Shown here: in pieces, positions 2,021 through 63,920 of the stretch | Position numbering within the stretch: the first letter of the stretch is position 1 | How the letters are laid out: the number at the start of each line of letters is the position of its first letter | Assembly: GCF_024502345.1 (NCBI RefSeq) | Contig: NZ_JALDNN010000001.1 | DNA from: Escherichia coli | Lineage (GTDB): Bacteria > Pseudomonadota > Gammaproteobacteria > Enterobacterales > Enterobacteriaceae | DNA length: 64,000 bases | Direction: 5' to 3' (one strand) | Position numbers and translations under genes: made by a program | The notes under the pieces: model-generated | The model's database searches: none | What the model was told of the DNA's origin: nothing | The model's input: only the letters and a program-made list of their open reading frames with translations

Positions 2021-3251
2021 ACCCTTCGTGAGAATTTCCCATCTGTTTATCCTTTAAAAAGATAACCATCAGCGACAACCACAAAATTCCGTTGACAAGG
2101 TTGAAGAGATTAAACAGTCCGTTGCCCCCGTTCAGCCAGGCATGTTTGCTGATTTCAATACCGACGGTAAAGATCAGCATTTGCAGCATTCCCATCGCCG
2201 CAGAAACCGTACCTTTACTCATATGGCTGGCAAACAGGGTTAATCGCACCAGTCCCGCATTCGCCAGACCAATACCGAAAGCATAAATACTTAACCCGGC
2301 GGTCATCCATAAATACGCGTGCGATGAGATAACCGTTGCCGCAGCAGCGACCAACAGACCAATCATAATCGGCCAGCCGCCCATAATAATCAGCGAACGT
2401 ACGGTGCGGCGCGAGGTCAGACGCGCTAACAGCAAGTTACCCGCAATTAACGCCCCGAAAATAGGCACTTGCAGCAAACCATATTCATAGCTGCTCAACT
2501 GCTCGCCGGTAATGATGATAATCGGCGACTGAGCGATCCACGCCAGCAACGGCAGGCTAACGAATCCCAGCGCCAGCGCCCCCGCCACAAAGCGACCGTT
2601 CTTCAGCACCAGCTTATAGTCACGACCGAGTTCTTTCAGCGACAGTTTCTCGCCTATACGCGTGGCGGTTTCAGGCATGGCTCGTTGCAGACCGAAAAAG
2701 GAGATCGCTGCCAATGCGGCAAACAAGACAAACATCCCTTCCCAGGGCAGCACATGGATCCACGCCGCGCCCACCAGTGGACCAAGTAGCGGAGCAATCA
2801 GCGCCACGTTCGCCATCAGCGCGGTGATCTTGATACAAACCGCCTCTTCGAAGGATTCCTGAATTGCGGCGTATCCCACAGCGCCAATGAAACAGAGGCT
2901 TATGCCCTGCAAGAAGCGCAACAGGGTGAATTGTTCAATGTTTTGCGCCAGTAATATTGCCAGACAGGTGACAATAAACCACACCACACCCGCCAGCATC
3001 ACCGGACGGCGACCAATACGATCCGACAACGGCCCCAGGAGCCATTGTAAAAACATCCCGCCCGCCAGATACGCGGTCATCGAAGTAGGAACCCAATCAA
3101 TGCCCGCCTGATATTGTTCCACCACGGCCAACATACCGGGTTGAATCATATCGTTGCCGATATAGGTTGAAAATTCGTAAAGCACCAGACAGAGAGGGAA
3201 AAGTAACGCCTGACGTCCAAGCCTGGCACCGGAAGCTAATTTATTTTGCAT
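2019..3251 (-). CDS. mdfA: multidrug efflux MFS transporter MdfA (Cmr)
   Basis: 410-aa ORF, 12-TM MFS-like protein recognised as MdfA by sequence recall. Confidence 0.93.
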
Positions 3252-3535
3252 GCAATTTCTTCGCCAATAATAATCGCGCAGAGTTTAATAAAAGCGCAGC
3301 TAACGAGAAAGCGAATTTTGTAGCTGAAACCGCGGTTAAGCACATTCTTACATTATTGCGAGTATAGCTACGCTTTCTTTAAGTTTTATTTAACCTATGC
3401 CCGTTACAATCACCCACCGTAAACAGGCCGCTTGAGGGAAATAAGACGATGCCGCTTTACCCAGTTTAACCTGCACTTTATTCTCAACGACTTGCCTGTA
3501 TTGGCTCCCTTTTAATCACTTTGCGTCGGGAAGTT

Positions 3536-4132
3536 ATGCTGGAAAATTTGAATCTCTCTCTATTCTCTCTTATTAACGCGACGCCAGACTCGGCTCCGTG
3601 GATGATCTCGTTGGCGATTTTTATTGCTAAAGATTTGATTACCGTGGTGCCGCTGCTGGCCGCGGTACTTTGGTTGTGGGGGCTTACAGCACAACGGCAA
3701 CTGGTGATAAAAATCGCTATCGCGCTGGCGGTCAGCCTGTTTGTGTCCTGGACGATGGGACATCTTTTTCCGCACGACCGACCGTTTGTCGAAAATATCG
3801 GCTATAACTTCCTGCATCATGCGGCGGATGACTCATTCCCGAGCGATCACGGTACGGTGATTTTCACCTTTGCACTGGCATTTTTATGCTGGCATCGCCT
3901 GTGGTCCGGCTCACTTTTAATGGTGCTGGCCGTCGTCATTGCCTGGTCGCGCGTTTATCTTGGCGTCCACTGGCCGCTGGATATGCTCGGTGGATTGCTG
4001 GCAGGTATGATTGGCTGCCTTAGTGCCCAGATTATCTGGCAAGCGATGGGGCATAAACTCTATCAACGTCTGCAATCGTGGTATCGCTTCTGTTTTGCAT
4101 TACCGATCCGCAAAGGCTGGGTGCGTGACTGA
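3536..4132 (+). CDS. ybjG: undecaprenyl-pyrophosphate phosphatase, PAP2 family
   Basis: 198 aa from ATG 3536 (track ORF starts 15 nt upstream); PAP2 motifs PSDH and SRVYLGVHWPLD. Confidence 0.88.
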   Translation: MLENLNLSLFSLINATPDSAPWMISLAIFIAKDLITVVPLLAAVLWLWGLTAQRQLVIKIAIALAVSLFVSWTMGHLFPHDRPFVENIGYNFLHHAADDSFPSDHGTVIFTFALAFLCWHRLWSGSLLMVLAVVIAWSRVYLGVHWPLDMLGGLLAGMIGCLSAQIIWQAMGHKLYQRLQSWYRFCFALPIRKGWVRD

Positions 4133-4189
4133 TCTCTGCTAAAAAGTGTAGTATTGAGCGGCTCGCTTCAATAACTATTCAGAGGGATT

Positions 4190-4948
4190 ATGGAAACACG
4201 TCGCGAAGAGCGTATCGGGCAGCTGCTGCAAGAATTAAAACGCAGCGATAAGTTACATCTTAAAGACGCCGCCGCCCTGCTTGGGGTTTCGGAGATGACG
4301 ATTCGTCGCGATCTGAACAACCACAGTGCGCCCGTCGTTTTGCTCGGCGGCTATATTGTTCTGGAACCGCGCAGTGCCAGCCATTACCTGTTAAGCGATC
4401 AAAAATCCCGCCTGGTGGAAGAAAAACGCCGGGCGGCAAAACTGGCTGCGACACTGGTAGAACCCGATCAGACTCTCTTTTTTGACTGTGGCACCACCAC
4501 GCCGTGGATTATTGAAGCGATTGATAATGAAATCCCTTTTACCGCCGTTTGTTATTCGCTAAATACCTTTCTGGCGCTGAAAGAGAAACCCCATTGCCGC
4601 GCATTTCTGTGCGGTGGTGAATTTCACGCCAGCAACGCCATTTTCAAACCCATCGATTTTCAGCAAACGTTGAATAATTTTTGCCCGGATATCGCTTTTT
4701 ATTCCGCGGCGGGCGTGCATGTCAGTAAAGGCGCTACCTGTTTTAATCTTGAAGAGTTGCCGGTAAAACACTGGGCCATGTCGATGGCGCAAAAGCATGT
4801 GCTGGTTGTCGACCACAGTAAATTTGGCAAGGTGCGTCCGGCGCGCATGGGTGACCTGAAACGCTTTGATATTGTGGTGAGTGATTGTTGCCCGGAAGAT
4901 GAGTATGTGAAGTACGCGCAGACGCACCGTATTAAGTTGATGTATTAA
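4190..4948 (+). CDS. deoR: DeoR transcriptional repressor of the deoxyribose operon
   Basis: 252-aa ORF with N-terminal HTH and DeoR-type C-terminal sugar-phosphate binding domain. Confidence 0.93.
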   Translation: METRREERIGQLLQELKRSDKLHLKDAAALLGVSEMTIRRDLNNHSAPVVLLGGYIVLEPRSASHYLLSDQKSRLVEEKRRAAKLAATLVEPDQTLFFDCGTTTPWIIEAIDNEIPFTAVCYSLNTFLALKEKPHCRAFLCGGEFHASNAIFKPIDFQQTLNNFCPDIAFYSAAGVHVSKGATCFNLEELPVKHWAMSMAQKHVLVVDHSKFGKVRPARMGDLKRFDIVVSDCCPEDEYVKYAQTHRIKLMY

Positions 4949-23332: not shown

Positions 23333-23415
23333 AGGCCTGATAAGACGCGACAAGCGTCGCATCAGGCATTTGCTCCAGACGCCAGATGCGGCGTGAACGC
23401 CTTATCTGGCCTACG
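23333..23415. repeat. REP elements (BIME-type pair) downstream of moeB
   Basis: aggcctgataagacgcgacaagcgtcgcatcaggc and gccagatgcggcgtgaacgccttatctggcctac, typical REP palindromes. Confidence 0.8.
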
Positions 23416-23499
23416 GTTCGGGCACAGATTTCCAAGCGCGGCAGGCATCGGTGCACTCCGCCACGTCATCAGCAATTTATGAGGATGCAGAACGTCCGG

Positions 23500-41343: not shown

Positions 41344-42062
41344 TTGAATTTAAAAACGTCTCCAAGCACTTTGGCCCAACCCAGGTGCTGCACAATATCG
41401 ATTTGAACATTGCCCAGGGCGAAGTCGTGGTGATTATCGGGCCGTCCGGTTCCGGTAAATCGACCCTGCTGCGCTGCATCAACAAACTGGAAGAAATCAC
41501 CTCCGGCGATCTGATTGTCGATGGCCTGAAGGTTAACGATCCGAAAGTTGACGAGCGCCTGATTCGCCAGGAAGCAGGTATGGTGTTCCAGCAGTTTTAC
41601 CTCTTCCCGCATCTGACGGCGCTGGAAAACGTCATGTTTGGTCCGCTACGCGTGCGTGGCGCGAACAAAGAAGAGGCGGAAAAACTGGCGCGTGAGCTGC
41701 TGGCGAAAGTCGGTCTGGCAGAACGTGCACATCACTACCCTTCCGAACTTTCTGGTGGTCAACAGCAGCGTGTGGCGATTGCCCGCGCGCTGGCGGTGAA
41801 GCCGAAAATGATGCTGTTTGATGAACCGACTTCCGCTCTTGACCCGGAACTGCGCCATGAAGTGCTGAAGGTTATGCAGGATCTGGCTGAAGAAGGGATG
41901 ACGATGGTGATCGTGACCCACGAAATCGGTTTTGCCGAGAAAGTAGCTTCGCGGCTGATCTTTATCGACAAAGGCCGGATTGCGGAAGATGGCGATCCGC
42001 AGGTATTGATCAAGAACCCGCCGAGCCAGCGCTTGCAGGAATTTTTGCAGCACGTCTCTTAA
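41340..42062 (+). CDS. glnQ: glutamine ABC transporter ATP-binding protein GlnQ
   Basis: 240-aa ORF, GTG start overlapping glnP stop; Walker [10 protein letters not shown]. Confidence 0.92.
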
Positions 42063-42178: not shown

Positions 42179-44404
42179 ATGCGGTGGATCCTGTTCATCC
42201 TCTTCTGCCTGCTGGGCGCACCTGCCCACGCGGTATCCATACCCGGCGTTACAACCACAACGACAACGGACTCAACGACTGAACCGGCCCCGGAACCGGA
42301 TATCGAACAAAAAAAAGCGGCCTATGGCGCACTGGCGGATGTGCTGGATAACGACACCTCGCGTAAAGAATTGATCGACCAGTTGCGTACTGTCGCCGCG
42401 ACGCCCCCTGCGGAACCGGTCCCGAAGATCGTGCCGCCGACGCTGGTTGAAGAGCAAACCGTGCTGCAAAAGGTCACCGAAGTCAGCCGCCATTATGGTG
42501 AAGCCCTTTCCGCCCGCTTCGGGCAACTTTATCGCAATATCACCGGCTCCCCGCATAAGCCATTTAATCCACAAACCTTCAGCAATGCGCTGAGCCATTT
42601 TTCAATGTTAGCGGTATTAGTGTTTGGTTTTTACTGGCTGATTCGCCTGTGCGCACTGCCGCTGTATCGCAAAATGGGTCAGTGGGCGAGGCAAAAAAAT
42701 CGTGAGCGCAGCAACTGGTTGCAGCTTCCGGCGATGATTATCGGGGCGTTTATTATCGACCTGCTGTTACTGGCCCTGACATTATTTGTCGGCCAGGTAT
42801 TAAGCGACAACCTGAATGCAGGCAGTCGCACCATCGCTTTCCAACAAAGTTTGTTTCTCAATGCCTTTGCCCTGATTGAATTTTTCAAAGCCGTACTACG
42901 CCTGATTTTTTGCCCAAACGTGGCGGAGCTGCGTCCGTTCACGATTCAGGACGAGAGCGCCCGTTACTGGAGTCGTCGCCTGAGCTGGTTAAGCAGTTTG
43001 ATAGGTTATGGCCTGATTGTGGCCGTGCCGATTATCTCTAATCAGGTGAATGTACAGATAGGTGCGCTGGCGAACGTCATCATTATGCTGTGCATGACCG
43101 TCTGGGCGTTGTACCTGATCTTTCGTAATAAAAAAGAGATTACCCAGCATTTGCTCAACTTTGCGGAGCATTCGCTGGCCTTTTTCAGCCTGTTTATCCG
43201 CGCCTTTGCGCTGGTGTGGCACTGGCTGGCAAGCGCCTATTTTATCGTGCTGTTTTTCTTTTCGTTGTTCGATCCGGGCAACAGTCTGAAATTTATGATG
43301 GGTGCAACGGTGCGCAGCCTGGCGATTATTGGTATCGCAGCGTTTGTTTCCGGTATGTTTTCCCGCTGGCTGGCGAAAACCATCACCCTCTCGCCACATA
43401 CTCAGCGTAACTATCCGGAGCTACAAAAACGGCTGAATGGCTGGCTTTCGGCGGCGCTGAAAACGGCGCGTATTCTGACCGTCTGCGTGGCAGTAATGTT
43501 GCTGTTGAGCGCATGGGGATTGTTCGATTTCTGGAACTGGCTGCAAAACGGCGCGGGGCAGAAAACCGTAGATATCCTGATCCGCATCGCACTCATTCTT
43601 TTCTTCTCGGCGGTTGGCTGGACGGTGCTCGCCAGTTTGATCGAAAACCGGCTGGCTTCGGATATTCATGGCCGCCCGCTACCCAGCGCCCGTACGCGTA
43701 CCCTGCTGACGCTGTTTCGTAACGCGCTGGCGGTGATTATCAGTACCATCACCATCATGATTGTGTTGTCGGAAATCGGCGTCAATATCGCGCCATTGCT
43801 GGCAGGTGCCGGGGCATTAGGTCTGGCTATCTCGTTTGGTTCGCAAACGCTGGTGAAAGATATCATTACCGGGGTGTTTATTCAGTTTGAAAACGGCATG
43901 AACACTGGAGATTTGGTGACTATCGGGCCGTTGACCGGCACAGTGGAACGGATGTCGATTCGCTCCGTGGGCGTGCGCCAGGATACCGGGGCGTATCACA
44001 TCATTCCGTGGTCTTCGATAACCACCTTTGCTAACTTCGTCCGCGGTATTGGTTCGGTAGTGGCAAACTACGATGTTGATCGCCATGAAGATGCTGATAA
44101 AGCCAATCAGGCACTGAAAGATGCGGTAGCGGAATTGATGGAAAACGAAGAAATTCGCGGGCTGATTATTGGTGAACCGAATTTTGCCGGGATTGTCGGC
44201 TTAAGCAATACCGCGTTTACACTGCGTGTTTCGTTCACCACGCTGCCACTCAAACAGTGGACGGTACGCTTTGCCCTCGACAGCCAGGTGAAAAAACATT
44301 TCGACCTGGCGGGCGTTCGCGCGCCAGTGCAGACTTATCAGGTGCTGCCTGCTCCGGGCGCGACCCCGGCTGAACCGCCGCCGCCGGGGGAGCCAACGCT
44401 TTAA
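42179..44404 (+). CDS. ybiO: mechanosensitive channel YbiO (MscS family)
   Basis: 741 aa from ATG 42179; signal peptide, multiple TM helices, MscS-like C-terminal domain. Confidence 0.9.
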
Positions 44405-49997: not shown

Positions 49998-50120
49998 GTA
50001 GGACGGATAAGGCGTTTACGCCGCATCCGGCAACAGATGCCTGATGCGACGCTACCGCGTCTTATCAGGCCTACAAAATCCGAACCGTTGGACGGATCAG
50101 GCGTTTACGCTACGTCCAGC
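49998..50120. repeat. REP element cluster (three REP-like palindromes) downstream of ybiJ
   Basis: gtaggacggataaggcgtttacgccgcatccggc, gcctgatgcgacgctaccgcgtcttatcaggcctac, ggacggatcaggcgtttacgctacgtcc. Confidence 0.8.
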
Positions 50121-55239: not shown

Positions 55240-55390
<151 letters not shown>

Positions 55391-61547: not shown

Positions 61548-62654
61548 ATGTTTCATCGCTTATGGACGTTAATCCGCAAAGAGTTGCAGTCGCTGCTGCG
61601 CGAACCGCAAACCCGCGCGATTCTGATTTTACCTGTGCTTATTCAGGTGATTCTGTTCCCGTTCGCCGCCACGCTGGAAGTGACTAACGCCACCATCGCC
61701 ATCTACGATGAAGATAACGGCGAGCATTCGGTGGAGCTGACCCAACGTTTTGCCCGCGCCAGCGCCTTTACTCATGTGCTGCTGCTGAAAAGCCCACAGG
61801 AGATCCGCCCAACCATCGACACACAAAAGGCGTTACTCCTGGTGCGTTTCCCGGCTGACTTCTCGCGCAAACTGGATACCTTCCAGACCGCGCCGTTGCA
61901 GTTGATCCTCGACGGGCGTAACTCCAACAGTGCGCAAATTGCCGCCAACTACCTGCAACAGATCGTCAAAAATTATCAGCAGGAGCTGCTGGAAGGAAAA
62001 CCGAAACCTAACAACAGCGAGCTGGTGGTACGCAACTGGTATAACCCGAATCTCGACTACAAATGGTTTGTGGTGCCGTCACTGATCGCCATGATCACCA
62101 CTATCGGCGTAATGATCGTCACTTCACTTTCCGTCGCCCGCGAACGTGAACAAGGTACGCTCGATCAGCTACTGGTTTCGCCGCTCACCACCTGGCAGAT
62201 CTTCATCGGCAAAGCCGTACCGGCGTTAATTGTCGCCACCTTCCAGGCCACCATTGTGCTGGCGATTGGTATCTGGGCGTATCAAATCCCCTTCGCCGGA
62301 TCGCTGGCGCTGTTCTACTTTACGATGGTGATTTACGGTTTATCGCTGGTGGGATTCGGTCTGTTGATTTCATCACTCTGCTCGACACAACAGCAGGCGT
62401 TTATCGGCGTGTTTGTCTTTATGATGCCCGCCATTCTCCTTTCCGGTTACGTTTCGCCGGTGGAAAACATGCCAGTATGGCTGCAAAACCTGACGTGGAT
62501 TAACCCTATTCGCCACTTTACGGACATTACCAAGCAGATTTATTTGAAGGATGCGAGTCTGGATATTGTGTGGAATAGTTTATGGCCGCTACTGGTGATA
62601 ACGGCCACGACAGGGTCAGCGGCGTACGCGATGTTTAGACGTAAGGTGATGTAA
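61548..62654 (+). CDS. ybhR: ABC-2 type permease YbhR
   Basis: 368-aa membrane protein, paralog of ybhS. Confidence 0.9.
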
Positions 62655-63026
62655 CTTCTTATCTTTCGCCAGCAAAGACACTACCGCCGGGCCGGCAAGG
62701 ATTGCCAGCCCTGCAATTGCCAGCAAAAAGTTGTTTTCCAGTACGCGGGACAACAGCCACAGCACAATCAGCGCTGCGCCAAAATACCAGGTCGTGGTCA
62801 GCTCTTCCAGCACGTCTGCCACCTCACGCCAGCGTTGCTCGGGGTGGCGCTGAAACACCAACATCATCACTACCGTGACACAATACAGTGCGCATAATCC
62901 CACGCCGACGTGAACCAGAGTCTTACTCATCCAGCCCACCACCAGCAGCGCCACTACCAGTAAATGCAACATAATCTGCCAGCAACTTAGACCCGTTGCG
63001 ACACGAACACGTTGTTGCCACTTCAT
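62616..63026 (-). CDS. ybhQ: inner membrane protein YbhQ
   Basis: 136-aa hydrophobic ORF; 3' end overlaps ybhR 3' end by 39 nt. Confidence 0.8.
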
Positions 63027-63158
63027 GGCTTCTCTCCTGAAGAATTTATCTCTACTTACTCAGAGTACCGAACTTTACGGAAAATTCCGTAAGACCGCAC
63101 CTTTTTGTGACGCCGACTACACTATTTCAATGAGATAAGAGGCAAAGACAGGAAAATT

Positions 63159-63920
63159 ATGCCCGATCAAACACAACAATTTTCGTTCAAGGTGCTCACC
63201 ATCAATATTCACAAAGGCTTTACCGCGTTTAACCGACGCTTCATTTTGCCGGAACTTCGCGACGCGGTGCGCACCGTCAGCGCCGATATTGTTTGCCTGC
63301 AGGAAGTGATGGGCGCGCACGAAGTTCATCCGCTGCATGTGGAAAACTGGCCCGATACTTCGCACTACGAGTTTCTCGCCGACACTATGTGGAGCGATTT
63401 TGCCTACGGTCGCAATGCCGTCTACCCGGAAGGGCATCACGGTAACGCCGTACTGTCGCGCTATCCCATTGAACATTATGAGAATCGCGATGTTTCGGTC
63501 GATGGTGCGGAAAAGCGCGGCGTGCTCTACTGCCGCATTGTGCCGCCGATGACCGGAAAAGCGATTCATGTGATGTGCGTACATCTGGGCCTGCGTGAGG
63601 CGCACCGTCAGGCGCAGCTTGCGATGCTCGCCGAATGGGTGATTGAACTGCCGGACGGCGAACCAGTATTGGTGGCGGGTGATTTCAACGACTGGCGGCA
63701 AAAAGCTAATCATCCGTTAAAAGTGCAGGCCGGGCTGGATGAGATATTTACCCGCGCCCACGGACGCCCGGCGCGCACGTTTCCGGTGCAATTTCCTCTA
63801 CTACGTCTGGACAGGATCTATGTCAAAAATGCCAGCGCCAGCGCACCAACCGCGTTGCCGCTGCGGACATGGCGACACCTTTCTGATCATGCCCCTTTAA
63901 GTGCGGAGATTCATTTATGA
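63159..63920 (+). CDS. ybhP: endonuclease/exonuclease/phosphatase (EEP) family protein YbhP
   Basis: 253-aa ORF. Confidence 0.88.

Follow-up and report, generated by a model that had tools for sequence, protein, structure and literature searches.

The convergent genes ybhR and ybhQ of Escherichia coli share 39 nt of coding sequence at their 3' ends. Taking the evidence as a whole, we consider it probable that this is a genuine ancestral overlap in which each gene carries its 3'-end signals inside its partner, because intergenic DNA is absent. The DNA that we analysed, a stretch of 64,000 nt referred to here as the window, is reverse-colinear with MG1655 823656-887655, and an MG1655 position m converts to a window position w by w = 887656 - m, a map that we verified. 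ybhR, the last gene of the cecR-ybhGFSR cluster in the RefSeq annotation, lies at 61548-62654 on the plus strand and encodes an ABC-2 permease of 368 aa (open reading frame (ORF) list, Pfam, RefSeq annotation). ybhQ lies at 62616-63026 on the minus strand and encodes an inner-membrane protein of 136 aa belonging to PF11076 (ORF list, Pfam, homologues). The overlap, read from the sequence, therefore spans 62616-62654 on both strands. An earlier note on this DNA had described it, and its coordinates match the ORF list exactly. That note had allowed for a ybhQ stop ahead of the overlap or for transcripts that end before reaching it; the ORF list holds no earlier ybhQ stop, and the published ybhQ 3' end lies 79 nt inside ybhR.

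Both genes are well supported. YbhR matches the Pfam family ABC2_membrane_3 at 3.8e-51 and YbhQ matches PF11076 (YbhQ) at 2.4e-73 across residues 1-132 of 136, both far over the cut-off. Among 817 YbhQ homologues, proteins of 136 aa were found in Citrobacter, Salmonella, Leclercia and Enterobacter. The same two coding sequences with the same 39-nt overlap appear in the PGAP/RefSeq annotation of strain 2014C-3011 and of MG1655, and of the 5426 complete E. coli genomes, 5423 contain the ybhR-ybhQ region with an identity of at least 95%. It is hardly credible, then, that ybhQ is shorter than annotated or is no real gene, which would leave no true coding overlap. The one point in favour of such an artefact was that public assemblies contain many YbhQ variant calls of 159-165 aa; otherwise we found no support for it. 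These long variants look like indel errors, and further arguments against an artefact are that ybhQ has no earlier in-frame stop, that the family profile extends to YbhQ residue 132, that the length of 136 aa and the tail are kept in many genera, and that the position of the ybhQ stop is under selection (see below). We had considered the variants as natural frameshifts within the overlap and rejected this, as the frame switches at differing points. One long-YbhQ assembly that we inspected has a fragmented ybhR, and the variants were thus treated as indel errors.

Near the locus, Rfam gave no match at the gathering threshold, and none at E values up to 1 in 62300-63200. Elsewhere in the window, it gave two matches to naRNA4 and one to ES036, the sites being 23334-23411 (minus strand), 50001-50071 (plus) and 55304-55346 (plus). 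The first naRNA4 match overlaps the edge of an insertion of ~103 nt relative to MG1655 (about 23350-23452). Conversely, the 139 nt of MG1655 845602-845740 are missing from the window (at about 42058-42062).

Since the length of the overlap is a multiple of three, the two frames lie codon on codon, with position 1 of either gene opposite position 3 of the other. The ybhQ stop TGA (62616-62618, minus strand) is the ybhR Ser357 codon TCA, and the ybhR stop TAA (62652-62654, plus strand) is the ybhQ Leu125 codon TTA. The YbhQ tail L125-R136 is consequently the exact antisense reading of YbhR S357-M368 plus the stop, and small or hydrophobic YbhR residues (A, A, Y, A, M, F) become mostly basic YbhQ residues (R, R, V, R, H, K). 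The YbhQ residue opposite the ybhR stop is always L or S, as the genetic code demands. In this register, antisense stops come only from the ybhR codons TTA, CTA and TCA, which make up 14 of its 369 codons (3.8%), and 12 open antisense codons are expected by chance ~60% of the time. The scarcity of stop-giving codons means that the length of the overlap is by itself not beyond chance; what is beyond chance is its conservation. A second convergent coding overlap in the window, of 4 nt at 44401-44404, falls at the position of MG1655 rlmF/ybiO, a pair that is also in ExcludonFinder.

To describe this conservation, we fetched 80 loci, one per species, together with an alignment of YbhQ homologues, and measured the distance from stop to stop in these and in the window (81 loci). 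The overlap was exactly 39 nt in 66 of them, from about 20 genera that include Escherichia, Salmonella, Citrobacter, Leclercia, Enterobacter, Kluyvera, Yokenella, Atlantibacter, Mangrovibacter, Siccibacter, Cedecea, Trabulsiella, Pseudocitrobacter and Superficieibacter. Only in Kosakonia cowanii (locus L050, 2873-2920) was a stop shifted within the overlap: YbhR Ser357 has become Thr, the ybhQ stop is lost and the overlap is 48 nt. In 13 loci, the genes are separated by 2-206 nt. The overlap was lost with both genes kept in at least four lineages, and the YbhR C-terminus is identical in all arrangements, with or without overlap. By parsimony, the overlap is ancestral and was then resolved several times.

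A repeat inserted just beyond the ybhR stop accompanies the separation in 8 of the 13 loci (Raoultella, three Kosakonia species and two others). This ERIC/IRU-like element lies at 2870-3118 in L068, 2870-3144 in L069 and 2870-2985 in L070, and it is also present in L026, L028, L029, L062 and L071. L068 and L069 carry it in two tandem copies, which in L069 (Raoultella ornithinolytica) are 122 nt apart. In L069, a 40-nt stretch of the repeat agrees at 33 of 40 positions with the ERIC core. The inserted repeat encodes a replacement YbhQ tail, FGLHQGGNAANPxKHR; an ERIC-like element has thus been recruited as coding sequence for a new YbhQ C-terminus. A search of the element against E. coli genomes gave no match.

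Two further departures were seen. In Phytobacter (L030 and L032), the ybhQ stop falls 18 nt short of the ybhR stop, and a perfect hairpin of 11-13 bp (GGCGTAAGGT...ACCTTACGCC, -25 to -27 kcal/mol) lies across the ybhR stop at 2899-2945 and 2902-2948, respectively, which is a different solution to 3'-end formation. In the type strain of Escherichia albertii, NBRC 107761, ybhQ contains an early amber codon (W16, TGG to TAG, L005 574-576), the only one in the 81 loci, while the remainder of ybhQ and the 39-nt geometry are intact. A recent pseudogene, a gene restarting at M19 or a sequencing error could each account for it.

We next aligned the ybhR codons and calculated third-position entropy at fourfold-degenerate sites in 61 species with the overlap and 13 without it. 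In the overlap species, the 179 fourfold-degenerate sites had a mean entropy of 1.11 bits and 13 of them were below 0.3 bits. Six of these 13 nearly invariant sites fall in the last 22 ybhR codons, compared with 7 of 166 sites elsewhere (Fisher p = 5e-5), and the seven elsewhere are all in the favoured codons CTG or CCG. Three of the six constrained sites face the ybhQ stop, R136 and R135, and the others fall in codons 347, 352 and 353, part of a hairpin described below; codon bias accounts for one of them (CCG). Between the two groups, the three sites of spacer codons 354-356 are saturated (1.4-1.9 bits). The third position of ybhR Ser357 is A in 61 of 61 overlap species, versus 10 A and 3 G in the non-overlap species. 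Furthermore, these six sites lose their constraint in the 13 species without the overlap: their summed entropy there is 4.29, whereas none of 2000 subsamples of 13 overlap species exceeded 1.63; this subsample test and the shuffle control ignore kinship, and the species are phylogenetically related. In these alignments, then, the ybhR silent sites that face the ybhQ stop, its last two codons and one arm of the hairpin appear nearly invariant only in species that keep the overlap, which is a new observation. As the invariance accompanies the overlap alone, the comparison indicates that the ybhQ stop and last two codons are under selection of their own and that the YbhQ tail is not merely tolerated.

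These data bear on a simpler explanation, in which a functionless YbhQ tail arose when the ybhQ frame ran into antisense ybhR and persists through the constraint that YbhR places on the DNA. Some of our observations agree with such neutral overprinting. The register is permissive, with 3.8% antisense stops, and residues 126-130 of the tail are freely variable. In addition, eight loci, Raoultella and Kosakonia among them, have a repeat-encoded tail in its place, Phytobacter has a shorter one, and the YbhR C-terminus is unchanged with or without the overlap. However, constraint on YbhR cannot explain invariant silent sites opposite the ybhQ stop, R135 and R136 that are relaxed elsewhere. Moreover, YbhQ K131, H132 and R135 are invariant in a 12-sequence alignment, and most replacement tails likewise end in basic residues, which fits a cytoplasmic basic tail. 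From four predicted membrane helices and the positive-inside rule, the YbhQ tail is indeed predicted to be cytoplasmic and basic. We therefore regard neutral overprinting as unlikely.

The constrained hairpin codons belong to a GC-rich structure that folding predicts in ybhQ-sense RNA at 62582-62608 (minus strand), with an 11-bp stem and a 5-nt loop. It begins 8 nt past the ybhQ stop, within ybhR codons 345-353 and 44-70 nt before the ybhR stop. Its pairing is kept in 93% of alignment cells across 65 distinct sequences, one-sided changes at the core pairs nearly all lead to G-U, and two pairs show compensatory changes (GC to AU; CG to UG to UA). In this strain, the hairpin is more stable in ybhQ-sense RNA than in ybhR-sense RNA (-16.5 versus -9.6 kcal/mol), and across species this asymmetry is small (1.1 kcal/mol, p = 0.02). 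A weaker hairpin was expected in species without the overlap, but the difference was not significant (-16.5 versus -18.4 kcal/mol, p = 0.32). The nearly equal stability without overlap and the slight strand bias suggest that the link between the hairpin and ybhQ is not exclusive.

Of the features of an intrinsic terminator, the structure has the GC-rich stem-loop (11 bp, -16.5 to -18.5 kcal/mol) but lacks the U-rich tract: the stem is followed by AAACUAUUCC, and a terminator scan made no call there. It also lies inside the ybhR coding sequence instead of between the two stops, and has no A/U tracts of the kind expected of a bidirectional terminator. A stem-loop has been reported to position head-on polymerase collisions at convergent pairs (bioRxiv 10.1101/2022.10.23.513370), and here the stem is a near-perfect palindrome in most species, so that one might picture the hairpin as a collision-type or intrinsic bidirectional terminator serving both genes. 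This is very unlikely. Termination at the hairpin, 44-70 nt upstream of the ybhR stop, would truncate YbhR; flanking A or U tracts are absent; the hairpin is weaker on the ybhR-sense strand in E. coli; and the ybhR-sense Rho region sits 73 nt beyond the ybhR stop. Two other candidates in the region were rejected. A predicted plus-strand hairpin after the ybhR stop (62686-62714) is not a conserved terminator, since fourfold sites of ybhQ show saturation along its length (entropy 1.0-1.9), and a minus-strand terminator-like scan call at 62698-62684 precedes the ybhQ stop and is not conserved.

Published transcript data place the ends of both mRNAs inside the partner genes. The dominant ybhQ 3' end in the Term-seq data of Adams et al. 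2021 (eLife, PMC7815308, supplementary file 1) is at 62576 on the minus strand (MG1655 825080 +), where two growth conditions show it and the study labels it 'primary' with respect to ybhQ and 'antisense' with respect to ybhR. This end is 6 nt past the hairpin, 40 nt past the ybhQ stop and 79 nt inside ybhR, with no U tract. The Rho-inhibition data of the same study (supplementary file 2) give two Rho termination regions, whose positions are coarse, each being the best score in an 800-nt window. One, for ybhQ-sense read-through antisense to ybhR, is at about 62474 on the minus strand (MG1655 825182 +, Rho score 3.9), and the other, ybhR-sense and antisense to ybhQ, is at about 62727 on the plus strand (MG1655 824929 -, Rho score 3.9). 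In these published data, read-through is reported as bicyclomycin-sensitive on both strands. The RNA is C-rich past both stops, with a C/G ratio of 1.5-1.9 beyond that of ybhQ and 1.3-1.4 beyond that of ybhR. No dominant 3' end is listed for ybhR (PMC7815308). Beyond the ybhR stop, the silent sites of ybhQ are saturated, a pattern compatible with diffuse Rho-dependent termination in that stretch. Neither ybhQ nor ybhR has an entry in TERMITe, SMRT-Cappable-seq, the 2023 transcriptional-interference paper or Bury-Moné 2009.

Any mRNA for full-length YbhR or YbhQ must include the 39 nt, and the 3' ends are therefore antisense to each other. The earlier note had proposed as much, and the published ybhQ end inside ybhR and the listing of the pair in ExcludonFinder bear it out. 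The mRNAs are complementary across 62576-62654, a minimum of 79 nt, and the shared stretch probably extends to about 62727, which would bring it to about 150 nt. The note had also stated that there is no room between the genes for a conventional terminator. This is literally true but misleading, since a 3'-end hairpin and Rho regions are present inside the partner genes.

At the other end of ybhQ, codons 8-10 (62997-63005; CGT GTC GCA) have unusually conserved silent sites, and published Term-seq data contain an internal 3' end at 62966 (minus strand), 61 nt into ybhQ, with an intrinsic-terminator score of 4.9 and a Rho score of 0.6. The internal end and the conserved codons may reflect premature termination or a 5' structure.

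Together, these results suggest how the two mRNAs would be ended. RNA past the ybhQ stop is untranslated and C-rich and carries the conserved hairpin from ybhR codons 345-353. Most likely, Rho would terminate ybhQ transcription ~100 nt further on and exonucleases would trim the RNA back to the hairpin; weak hairpin-dependent termination is a less likely source of the 3' end. The ybhGFSR transcript has no conserved structure past its stop and would be ended diffusely by Rho within antisense ybhQ. Beyond the trimming itself, we infer that hairpin and Rho would stop ybhQ transcription from running far into the ybhGFSR operon and so limit antisense transcription into ybhR, with whatever effect this may have on expression. 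The result would be a constitutive convergent-excludon architecture in which full-length transcripts are always complementary. Since each stop codon doubles as a sense codon of the other gene, the arrangement is locked.

The two genes respond to different regulators. Published work reported that ybhQ is induced 5-fold by sigma-E, that its P2 promoter responds to sigma-E induction, and that Salmonella has a sigma-E ChIP peak in the interval from ybhP to ybhQ. In agreement with these regulon data, we found a sigma-E-like promoter motif (GGAATTT-N17-TCTGA) upstream of ybhQ at 63060-63088 on the minus strand, the sole match in the 64-kb window, where 0.03 were expected. ybhQ is thus a member of the sigma-E response. 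The ybhGFSR genes, according to PMC12998191, are controlled by CecR. Negative coupling between ybhQ and ybhR expression, which the earlier note had raised, is plausible as a putative effect, and if true, it would link envelope stress to the expression of an ABC efflux pump.

A regulatory excludon would go further and have the overlap kept for mutually exclusive expression: by means of colliding polymerases or of RNase III acting on the duplex, a rise in ybhQ under sigma-E would reduce ybhR and with it the YbhFSR pump, or a CecR-dependent rise in ybhGFSR would reduce ybhQ. The separate regulators, sigma-E for ybhQ and CecR for ybhGFSR, agree with this, as do the retention of the arrangement across genera and the place of the pair within the ExcludonFinder core set. 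On the other hand, we found no expression data for the pair in the literature with anticorrelation, and in PMC12288877, p19 dsRNA capture could not validate convergent excludons. Both genes are also weakly expressed (Term-seq scores of 3000-4700 versus tens of thousands for their neighbours, PMC7815308), which suggests that collisions or duplexes may be rare. Finally, at least four lineages dropped the overlap yet retained both genes, and the conserved hairpin and Rho would restrict read-through, not promote it. We therefore doubt that mutually exclusive expression is what maintains the overlap. More speculative still, and improbable in our judgement, is a conserved antagonistic switch made of the overlap and the hairpin, which would set envelope-stress ybhQ (sigma-E) against drug-efflux ybhGFSR (CecR) through antisense RNA or polymerase collision. 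In such a switch, the hairpin would have a dual use, encoding a membrane-helix segment of YbhR and setting how far ybhQ transcription reaches into ybhR. The preferred reading remains an ancestral overlap with nested 3'-end signals.

Earlier work already covers the overlap, its antisense transcripts and the label of excludon, and the case is genuine but ordinary. What this analysis adds is the conservation across genera, the silent-site evidence and the loss of the overlap through repeats. The import beyond the locus is small: it provides a clean, conserved case of stop codons and 3'-end signals nested in a partner gene, shows that silent-site conservation can expose hidden signals and that repeat insertion can undo such an overlap, and carries the practical point that recoding or deleting the 3' end of ybhR or ybhQ alters the other gene too.

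Among known systems, the locus resembles the Rho-dependent transcripts whose 3' ends are trimmed to a stem-loop (Dar and Sorek 2018, PMC6061677, in the summary given by Adams et al. 2021). Like them, it has a defined 3' end just past a stable hairpin that lacks a U tract, with bicyclomycin sensitivity some 100 nt further downstream. It differs from them in that the ybhQ hairpin is in the coding sequence of an opposite-strand gene, and trimming at ybhQ would be by analogy. The eight separated loci recall ERIC/IRU intergenic repeats in that a repeat parts ybhQ and ybhR, but here the element contributes coding sequence, namely the YbhQ tail.

ExcludonFinder (Sanmartin et al., NAR 2025, PMC12288877) lists ybhQ-ybhR in Table 1, among 165 convergent excludons of E. 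coli MG1655, as observed in at least 50% of 58 RNA-seq samples; its main text, in the part available, contains no pair-specific validation. The same source reports that most convergent excludons have terminators inside the transcription unit of the neighbour. Like them, our pair consists of convergent neighbours whose 3' transcription overlaps, with a short intergenic region or none at all, and it has termination signals in the partner's unit. It differs in that the overlap extends from the 3' UTRs to the coding sequences. E. coli has 75 convergent overlaps among 663 overlapping pairs. With conserved convergent overlapping pairs (Rogozin et al. 2002, cited in PMC2478687; Huvet and Stumpf 2014, PMC4161906), ybhR/ybhQ has in common a tail-to-tail overlap set by stop-codon position and conservation between species, and it belongs with them in that both genes are real, the 3' bases are shared without an earlier stop and the arrangement is conserved. 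Longer overlaps are described in this literature as tolerated only in the convergent orientation. At 39 nt, ybhR/ybhQ is longer than the 4 nt of rlmF/ybiO, the sole other overlapping convergent pair in the window, and its exact length is kept in about 20 genera, a wider range than the 'very close species' in which most long convergent overlaps are reported.
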